From: a virus
Taxonomy: Duplodnaviria; Caudoviricetes
DNA length: 64,000 bases
IMG/VR virus record: IMGVR_UViG_3300014590_000001
Coordinates: 32,001 to 96,000 of that record
Strand: one strand, 5' to 3'
Position 1 is the stretch's first letter. Each line of letters begins with the position of its first letter. The notes beneath the pieces are model-generated. The model was not told the origin of the DNA and did not search any database. It saw only the letters and a list, made by a program, of their open reading frames with translations. Positions 15,807 through 16,280 of this stretch are shown here, one piece after another. Made by a program: the position numbers and the translations under genes.

Positions 15807-16280
15807 AATTTGTGGTAACACAAATAGGCATAAGGAACTCTGAGAGTGAAAGAACTCTATCTTCTTATGTCGCTACTGATGTGCTTGTGGCAAGCGAGTA
15901 GATCAGGCATTGTAAAACAATGTGCGAGCACACCGGAAACGCTCGCGTCCAGCACTGCCGTGGTGTACGGCTATGCGCACGTTCGGGGGATGTGGGACAG
16001 CGACAAACACTTGCCAAGATGAAAATTTAAATTTGATTGCGGTACTGGCGGGTAACTCCGCTTATTCGGACAAGCAAAATTTCAGACGTGAGATTTTGTG
16101 CCGCCTCCAAATGGCGCGGCGATTCTGTCGGATGCAACACGGCGAACAACTGCTTTTCTTTGCCCAAGCTATATACCGATTGCTGCGCCGTTATTCTATA
16201 GGCTGCGCGTCAAACCTTTTAAAATCCGCATGAAAAATTTGATACGAAAACGGGTGGCCTTTGTGCTGCCCGTTTTTGTT
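15807..16280 (+). ncRNA. Structured ncRNA of about 470 nt
   Basis: Bounded by the promoter-like motif and a terminator. Hairpins include GCGAGC/GCTCGC, GCCGT/ACGGC and GCAAAATTTC/GAGATTTTGT, with long-range GGCAAG/CTTGCC pairing. Confidence 0.6.

Follow-up and report, generated by a model that had tools for sequence, protein, structure and literature searches.

A covariation-supported RNA core threaded by a small open reading frame in a jumbo phage: a putative bifunctional structured RNA

Location and organisation of the RNA unit

The stretch of DNA analysed here (the window; 64,000 nucleotides, nt) comprises bases 32001-96000 of IMG/VR record IMGVR_UViG_3300014590_000001, a virus record of 256,657 bp that carries direct terminal repeats, and the element described is a structured RNA unit at window positions 15795-16282. 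The genome is that of a 256-kb jumbo phage whose nearest cultured kin are the Dickeya phages JA11, JA13, JA29 and JA33 (Salmondvirus; the JA phages), with Erwinia jumbo phages (Y3, Alexandra, Yoloswag and the SNUABM series), Dickeya phage AD1 and Yersinia phage fHe-Yen9-02 as farther kin. An uncultured relative, L142 (identical to L161, a contig of ~256 kb), was recovered through a protein-anchored, alignment-based search and is 72% identical to the window in the core of the unit. The Dickeya and Erwinia members have been grouped with Pseudomonas phage PaBG, which encodes a sigma-70-like factor with homologues only in that phage group and in Mieseafarmvirus (PMC7412058).

The RNA unit is located among late structural genes, at the 3' end of a 2.2-kb gap poor in open reading frames (ORFs) at 14091-16318. 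The gap is bounded by a conserved gene of 593 amino acids (aa) and by the PAAR spike gene, the first of the baseplate cluster, and the identical flanking gene pair borders a gap of 1.3-2.4 kb in each relative examined. Nucleotide identity over 15756-16385 reaches 84% in JA29 and 80% in both JA13 and JA11, exceeding that of the small ORFs immediately upstream. From promoter motif to terminator, 15795-16282 is a single predicted transcription unit, and its structured region is real. Its features, in 5' to 3' order, are the following, where MFE denotes the minimum free energy fold and SD the Shine-Dalgarno sequence:

15795..15806, + strand: phage promoter motif ATCTGTAAATAG, a copy of the genome-wide motif ATCTGTAAA
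15809..15826, + strand: 5' hairpin ATTTGTG-GTAA-CACAAAT, in the MFE fold
15827..15871, + strand: SD-sequestering hairpin, GGCATAAGGA (15827-15836) with TTCTTATGTC (15862-15871), enclosing GTG 15846
15846..16022, + strand: 58-codon ORF, GTG start, alternative ATG at 15867, AAGGA 9 nt upstream
15868..16005 (to 16016 with the pseudoknot tail), + strand: conserved core domain, defined from alignments A3 and A4 and covariance model R1
16023..16243, + strand: structured insertion specific to the lineage (domain 2), shared by the window and the JA phages alone
16244..16282, + strand: intrinsic terminator, stem ACGGGTGGC/GCTGCCCGT followed by a T-run, in the MFE fold

The + strand of 15807-16285 folds with a predicted energy of -171.2 kcal/mol, compared with -141.5 +/- 6.0 kcal/mol for dinucleotide shuffles (z -4.98, reached by 0 of 100), while the - strand gives z -1.14, an asymmetry of the kind produced by G-U-containing RNA helices. 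Together with the promoter motif and the terminator, this fold supports a previous sequence-only reading of the window, in which the region had been described as a structured, stand-alone RNA of ~470 nt. The unit is not uniform, however, as it consists of a conserved core followed by an insertion of ~215 nt confined to the window and the JA phages. Seven of the eight hairpins listed in that reading are found in the consensus structures (ATTTGTG/CACAAAT, GGCATAAGGA/TTCTTATGTC, GCATTGT/ACAATGT, GCGAGC/GCTCGC, GCCGT/ACGGC, GCGG/CCGC and GCAAAATTTC/GAGATTTTGT), while GCCGC/GCGGC is missing from the consensus and its bases pair elsewhere. Two pairings had been proposed to close domains. The first, TTTGATTGCGGT with GCTGCGCGTCAAA, is absent from the consensus and weakened in JA13, and is thus not supported. 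The second, GGCAAG (15889) with CTTGCC (16010), is upheld, not as a domain-closing helix but as a pseudoknot between the apical loop of helix P2 and the tail that follows helix P1. At the site of the 5' hairpin JA13 and L142 display a hairpin of different sequence and JA29 has none, as read from the sequences with no formal count.

A conserved core closed by a long-range helix and a pseudoknot

The core is organised in seven helices, with the pseudoknot joining the loop of P2 to the 3' tail:

15868-15874 with 15999-16005, + strand: P1, long-range closing helix, TGTCGCT with AGCGACA
15876-15906, + strand: P2, long hairpin
15888..15894, + strand: P2 apical loop TGGCAAG, 5' side of the pseudoknot, complementary to 16010-16016
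15907-15923 and 15924-15946, + strand: P3a and P3b; P3 is one or two hairpins of variable sequence
15947-15950 with 15995-15998, + strand: P4, GTCC with GGAC
15952-15954 with 15974-15976, + strand: P5
15957-15971, + strand: P6, short hairpin with a GAAA, UUCG or UAAA loop and fully swapped stems
15978-15994, + strand: P7
16010..16016, + strand: tail CTTGCCA, 3' side of the pseudoknot, complementary to the P2 loop

The sequence-only reading had named a homologue covariation analysis as a check of the fold, and the outcome is strongly positive in two separate sets of relatives. Alignment A3, composed of four window-type sequences, contains 53 pairs with 97.1% of cells paired, compared with 30-48% for slid partners, and double changes occur in 12 pairs against 0-2 in controls. 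The same architecture emerges independently from alignment A4, composed of 15 Erwinia-type sequences, with 55 pairs, 97.3% paired against 38-48% for slid partners, and double changes in 23 pairs against 3-9 in controls. In both alignments 0 of 500 shuffles reach the observed values. Pairs were counted per type and not jointly, the register of the MAFFT alignment of all lineages (A5) being too poor for RNAalifold. In L142 the helices GCGAGC/GCTCGC and GCCGT/ACGGC are swapped to GTGGC/GCCAC and GTCGC/GCGAC, respectively, with the same geometry. Similarly, a double change in P5 of a natural variant contig, from GCA/UGC to GCU/AGC, keeps the pairing at the cost of two amino-acid changes in the small ORF.

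Covariance model R1, built solely from the Erwinia-type set, recovers the complete domain from Yoloswag, SNU5 and L159, at E 1e-9 to 7e-13, and also from Yersinia phage fHe-Yen9-02 (34.9 bits, E 2e-10). Applied to 15700-16040 of the window, R1 aligns 15822-16038 with P1, P3, P4, P5, P6 and P7 in register (19.3 bits), at an E-value of 7e-7 that applies to this searched stretch alone. On whole window-type loci R1 matched the terminator only, because domain 2 parts the core from the terminator.

The pseudoknot tail CTTGCC is invariant across the window, JA29, JA13 and L142. In Erwinia-type phages the loop (A)UGCUUGG is complementary to the tail CCAAGC(AU), so that both sides have changed in concert between GGCAAG/CUUGCC and GCUUGG/CCAAGC. 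The complementarity was assessed by per-lineage shuffles (P 0.001-0.08 per lineage) rather than by a joint pair count, since the tails of the two types are offset in the alignment; the shuffle row of fHe-Yen9-02, for which the tail sequence was partly approximate, is excluded. As judged from these comparisons, the core is maintained by compensatory changes over Dickeya-, Erwinia- and Yersinia-phage lineages.

A small ORF runs through the core

The ORF at 15846-16022 begins just 5' of P1, spans the core and stops just 3' of P1. It had been overlooked in the sequence-only reading, which stated that the ORFs overlapping the RNA lack an SD; the statement holds for 15922-16233 and 16098-16316 and fails for this ORF, with AAGGA 9 nt before its GTG. 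As genes, 15922-16233 and 16098-16316 were rejected, their frames being broken by indels of 1, 2, 4 and 7 nt in the JA phages.

A positional homologue of the small ORF is found in every relative. Throughout the 14 lineages tabulated the frame remains open over 47-67 codons, even along stretches without any sequence in common. The two other frames have 0-6 stops, most of them at least one, and are less hydrophobic. A strongly hydrophobic segment makes up the first 15-20 residues (Kyte-Doolittle (KD) hydropathy of the N-terminal 15-mer 1.6-3.05 over the 14 lineages), and the tail is variable. Alignment gaps measure 3, 15 and 3 nt within the ORF and 1-2 nt in its flanks, and most Erwinia-type phages carry AGGAG 6-7 nt 5' of the ATG. 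The SD, the start codon, the frame open in 14 of 14 lineages, the hydrophobic N-terminus and the in-frame indels argue against the view that the RNA is simply non-coding.

The codons themselves are weakly constrained as protein. The pooled ratio of non-synonymous to synonymous differences (pN/pS) is 0.77; it amounts to 0.58 over the initial 24 codons and to 0.90 over the remainder. For the neighbouring PAAR gene of these phages the ratio is 0.16, and the synonymous term pS is 0.375 in the small ORF against 0.63 in PAAR. Entropy is flat over the three codon positions (0.71/0.60/0.74), with no excess at the third, and the GAAA, UUCG and UAAA loops with their fully swapped stems fall within the ORF. 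With the strong covariation, these values support selection chiefly at the RNA level: base pairing is judged the dominant constraint, and the frame is probably translated with only its openness and hydrophobic start selected.

A profile of the peptide finds 16 homologues among 5.8 billion proteins, all of 47-55 aa, all from this clade and none functionally named. The peptide has no Pfam family, and PHROG matches in relatives are no better than E 0.03-0.1. The ORF is called as a coding sequence in few records and omitted from most genome annotations.

The initiation region is itself structured. In window-type RNA GGCAUAAGGA pairs with UUCUUAUGUC, burying the SD and enclosing the GTG, and RNAalifold on four sequences keeps all 10 pairs of this hairpin, with 4 one-sided wobble changes. 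The Erwinia-type counterpart pairs GACAC-AGGAGCAA with UGUUCU-GUGUC and its base overlaps P1. In both types the 3' base of the SD hairpin and the 5' strand of P1 have UGUC in common, and therefore the full SD hairpin and the full P1 are mutually exclusive, from which we infer that folding of the core may be coupled to translation.

Promoter, terminator and occurrence in RNA libraries

The promoter-like motif and the terminator noticed in the sequence-only reading both withstand genome-wide and comparative scrutiny. The 256-kb genome contains 21 copies of motif ATCTGTAAA and 0-1 of the reversed control. The copies are mainly intergenic, 35-56 nt ahead of ORF starts, with DNA primase, clamp loader and single-stranded DNA-binding protein genes among those downstream. 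The copy at the RNA unit is kept in JA13 and L142 and is present as the variant ACTGTAAA in JA29. By number and placement ATCTGTAAA is, as far as the genome sequence indicates, a real promoter class. Expression of the RNA unit is probably early or middle in infection, because its promoter class also precedes replication genes. Copies of the form ATCTGTAAA(T/G) occur in the genome, for example, at 199843, 214234 and 228423 (+) and at 193915, 195007 and 137009 (-), often immediately 3' of terminators, and may be read by a phage-encoded sigma factor.

The terminator is invariant in the JA phages and is conserved out to the Erwinia phages, where it lies directly 5' of PAAR in 15 Erwinia-type sequences with covarying loop-proximal pairs. 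Look-alike terminator hairpins were seen with the covariance model and blast at window positions 24079-24168, 41919-42009 and 54750-54777, and in the whole genome at 215508 and 56136. A CTAATTT(A/G) box, kept in all lineages, lies at 16283-16317 between the terminator and the PAAR SD and is a candidate late promoter of the baseplate operon.

Part of the stretch is contained in 20 sequencing runs from 11 studies, six of which are recorded as RNA libraries (wastewater, seed, food fermentation). When contigs of four studies were aligned, a 432-nt contig of a seed cDNA library was found to span exactly 15819-16252 with no loose ends, a weak hint of a discrete RNA, as the library data are contigs only and cannot show starts, ends, strand or level. 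In run X5 the contig on the RNA unit has a depth of 15.7 against 3.1-3.2 on flanking coding contigs, a poor measure of level; such word-depth differences, and uncovered stretches in some runs, were not counted as evidence of expression. Near-identical sequence to 13900-16700 occurs in wastewater, seed and food-fermentation RNA/cDNA libraries of several studies, and the phage or its close kin are therefore environmentally widespread.

The 3' half of the unit

Two copies of a direct repeat, ATGAAAA(A)TTT, border domain 2 (16019-16033 and 16230-16243). In Erwinia-type phages the tail CCAAGC leads straight to the terminator with no insertion, and L142 carries at exactly the same site an unrelated structured insert of 179 nt (L142 6996-7174; fold z -3.97). 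This site seems to accept exchangeable structured RNA modules. The ~215 nt of domain 2 fold with z -2.23, and three sequences yield 62 consensus pairs, 2 of them with double changes; variation is located in loops or is wobble-compatible, and a 7-nt deletion and clusters of substitutions lie in loops. Domain 2 is not coding, because its indels measure 1, 2, 4 and 7 nt.

Database searches and class membership

The cmscan search put forward in the sequence-only reading, along with its expectation of an uncatalogued family, gave the anticipated result: none of the 4227 families of Rfam 15 matches the whole window at the gathering threshold, and four related loci have no match at E up to 1. In E-value mode 14050-16350 gives chance-level hits far under threshold. 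A mir-70 match at 15731-15795 (E 0.003; 29.6 bits, the threshold being 90) was rejected as a chance hairpin within the preceding ORF. The absence of tRNA, tmRNA (transfer-messenger RNA) and RNase P hallmarks likewise stands, as ARAGORN finds no tRNA or tmRNA and Rfam has no match. Scanning IMG/VR for exact matches to GCGGGTAACTCCGC and to CGACA..AAWTCCAAGC yielded chance loci for the most part, among which blast and the covariance model identified only known relatives. The CTCCAAATGGCGCGGCG pattern scan returned JA phages and chance matches only, the hairpin pattern of domain 2 had no match in 185,579 species genomes, and a single-protein locus search for relatives found nothing.

The unit was also compared with the traits of known classes. 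A small hydrophobic peptide with a predicted transmembrane segment, as in type I toxin-antitoxin systems, is encoded (47-67 codons; KD 1.6-3.05 in 14 lineages), and antisense signals on the - strand are no more frequent than chance: one sigma-70-like site (16222..16193) and one terminator-like site (15946..15924). With regard to dual-function small RNAs, the unit has a promoter motif, a terminator and a fold backed by covariation, and the transcript is seen as RNA-library contigs only. For a leader-peptide attenuator, no conserved antiterminator pairing was found, and one by-eye Erwinia-type candidate is absent in the window. Membership among dual-function small RNAs or type I toxins cannot be claimed, the closest systems by analogy being RNAIII/hld and hok.

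Staphylococcus aureus RNAIII with hld and SgrS with SgrT are dual-function (coding) regulatory RNAs. Like these, the phage unit is, as predicted, a stand-alone, promoter-to-terminator, multi-hairpin RNA of a few hundred nt with a tiny ORF for a membrane-active or hydrophobic peptide, one molecule that would serve both an RNA-level function and translation. In contrast, the phage RNA has no sequence or model similarity to them and is encoded by a lytic jumbo phage, its ORF threads the whole pseudoknotted core instead of occupying a separate segment, and its peptide sequence is almost unconstrained. The hok/sok and Helicobacter pylori aapA1/IsoA1 systems involve type I toxin mRNAs. With hok and aapA1 the unit has in common a small hydrophobic peptide, predicted here, of ~50 aa. 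Also common to them are extensive mRNA structure that buries the SD, covariation-supported long-range helices and alternative pairings near the start. It departs from them in that no antisense antitoxin RNA and no similarity to a Pfam toxin family were found, in the location of the structure, mostly inside the ORF and not around the initiation region, and in a pN/pS of ~0.8.

The GOLLD, ROOL and Proteo-phage-1 motif RNAs are similarly phage-borne, multi-helix and covariation-supported, with function unknown. The window and four relatives, however, have no Rfam 15 match to them even at E up to 1-10, and to our knowledge none of the three carries a conserved ORF through its core. Phi29 pRNA is also a phage-encoded structured RNA of defined length near structural genes, and differs in the lack of Rfam similarity, in the ORF of the present unit and in its promoter class, that of replication genes and not of late genes.

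A proposed bifunctional RNA and its alternatives

The unit is best read, with moderate confidence, as a bifunctional structured RNA of ~470 nt, the core of which serves as an RNA-level product while a short membrane-anchored peptide is also made, the two uses competing per molecule. Such an RNA would begin a few nt 3' of ATCTGTAAATA and finish at the terminator, displaying in order the 5' hairpin, the SD-burying hairpin, the seven-helix core closed by P1 and locked by the pseudoknot, and the lineage-specific accessory domain. The folded core would be the main selected product, acting as RNA and probably binding a protein or another nucleic acid via its conserved junction bases. The peptide would be anchored in the membrane and leave its tail free. 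Competition between the uses would arise on each molecule through the UGUC common to the SD hairpin and P1, and also in that a translating ribosome must unfold the core. The unit forms part of an island rich in RNAs, next to an Acb2/Tad1-like gene, a setting that suggests a part in host takeover or counter-defence.

Several points weigh against this reading. Transcript ends, strand and translation are predictions from the sequence, and a target or partner of the RNA is a supposition. The counter-defence role draws only on neighbourhood and on a sub-threshold Pfam match of the neighbouring gene, and for domain 2, with three sequences and two double changes, the structure is plausible but unproven. 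The C-terminal frame of the ORF is shifted by a 1-nt insertion in SNU13/SNU7 and by two 1-nt deletions in the natural variant contig; a near-neutral peptide may not be functional, and the frame could be open in part because the fold conserves the sequence. The window copy is moreover the weakest in coding signals, with a GTG start, a buried SD and a hydropathy of 1.57.

An unlikely but serious alternative makes the peptide the primary product, the locus being a gene for a small membrane peptide akin to type I toxins, holin modulators or host-takeover peptides, and the mRNA fold only restraining or timing translation and stabilising the message, as in hok or aapA1 mRNAs. The ORF with its N-terminal hydrophobic segment, open in 14 of 14 lineages, the in-frame indels, the canonical SD of most Erwinia-type phages, the burial of the SD by a hairpin in both lineages and the lower pN/pS of the N-terminal 24 codons (0.58 against 0.90 elsewhere) are all accommodated. 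The core, however, lies downstream of the initiation region, and therefore most of it cannot gate initiation, and repression needs less than a junction of seven helices that is pseudoknotted and has conserved junction bases and tetraloops. The overall pN/pS of 0.77, the variable C-terminal frame, the failure to find an antisense partner (the lone - strand sigma-70-like site being at chance level) and the lack of relatives of the peptide outside the clade point the same way.

That the RNA is purely non-coding is rather improbable. The ORF would then never be usefully translated, and its openness would be a by-product of the fold and of U/G-rich helices, a view consistent with near-neutral amino acids, the absence of a third-position excess, the 3'-end frame shifts in some strains, the omission of the ORF from most annotations and the GTG start and sequestered SD of the window copy. 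It accounts poorly for 47-67 codons remaining open in 14 lineages, sequence-unrelated stretches included, where other frames hold 0-6 stops, and for length differences in multiples of three being confined to the ORF, the fixed position of start codon and SD, and a hydrophobic N-terminus specific to the ORF frame.

A bolder version of the bifunctional reading, offered tentatively and considered doubtful, treats the core as a ligand- or protein-sensing fold within the ORF. Binding would stabilise P1 and the pseudoknot and strip UGUC from the SD hairpin, switching peptide translation; or else the ribosome would 'erase' an RNA effector. If true, this would be a coding-region riboswitch or a translation-erasable RNA used early by jumbo phages, within an island of RNA-based counter-defence or host takeover next to an Acb2/Tad1-like sponge.

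It is very unlikely that the unit is a leader or attenuator in which ORF translation governs the terminator at 16244-16282 and hence read-through of early/middle-promoter transcription into the PAAR-baseplate operon. The Erwinia-type stop codon does lie ~40 nt 5' of the terminator, which directly precedes PAAR, and translation itself, not the peptide sequence, is seemingly selected. The distance from stop codon to terminator nevertheless extends to ~215 nt in the window and JA phages and to 179 nt in L142, and Yoloswag, SNU5 and L159 have another ORF between the domain and PAAR. The lack of a conserved antiterminator pairing, the by-eye Erwinia-type candidate being lost in the window, tells against it too, and the conserved CTAATTTA box between terminator and PAAR suggests a separate PAAR promoter. 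A DNA-level element (an origin, or repeats bound by a protein) or a decaying spacer with hairpins that arose by chance, which the setting within a repeat-containing 2.2-kb ORF-poor gap might invite, can be practically dismissed, given the strand-specific, G-U-rich fold, compensatory changes that preserve pairing and not sequence, conservation above that of neighbouring ORFs and presence in RNA libraries.

The core represents an uncatalogued RNA family, strongly supported by comparison among PaBG-related phages of Dickeya, Erwinia and Yersinia. Since several carrier phages are in culture, the RNA is directly testable. The unit is an unusually clean case of two codes, in which the ORF stays open and its codons are shaped by base pairing, with a bearing on the co-evolution of small proteins and RNA structure and on the handling of such loci by gene callers. 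Jumbo phages contain much unexplained sequence, and the phage-encoded structured RNAs with a known role are very few. The RNA-rich island, the Acb2/Tad1-like gene and the promoter class of replication genes point to early RNA-based host manipulation or counter-defence.

Neighbouring sequences of the gap

The 593-aa protein at the 5' border of the gap (12310-14091) contains a KMPT-N domain (PF20294, E 2e-12) and matches phrog_32352 of unknown function (E 2.5e-174). Three further ATCTGTAAA motifs (14097, 14206 and 14650) are located in 14097-15340, which also holds about three tandem units of 310-325 nt with conserved boxes (..CCGCAGAC.. and TTTAGACCTG.TTCAG.GGGAAACGGGAA) that are found again in Y3, SNUABM phages and L142.

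The ORF at 15344-15601 (85 aa) matches phrog_5120 (E 4e-9) and has a match to the Acb2/Tad1 hairpin domain (PF24729, E 0.019) that is sub-threshold, at 15.6 bits against a cut-off of 27; its product may be a cyclic-nucleotide sponge directed against CBASS (cyclic-oligonucleotide-based anti-phage signalling system) or Thoeris. The corresponding slot in L142 is occupied by other small ORFs. The next ORF, at 15603-15776 (57 aa; phrog_17259, E 0.001), ends in a stop codon that overlaps the promoter motif of the RNA unit, and its C-terminal DWF(Y/F)G is kept in the JA phages and L142.

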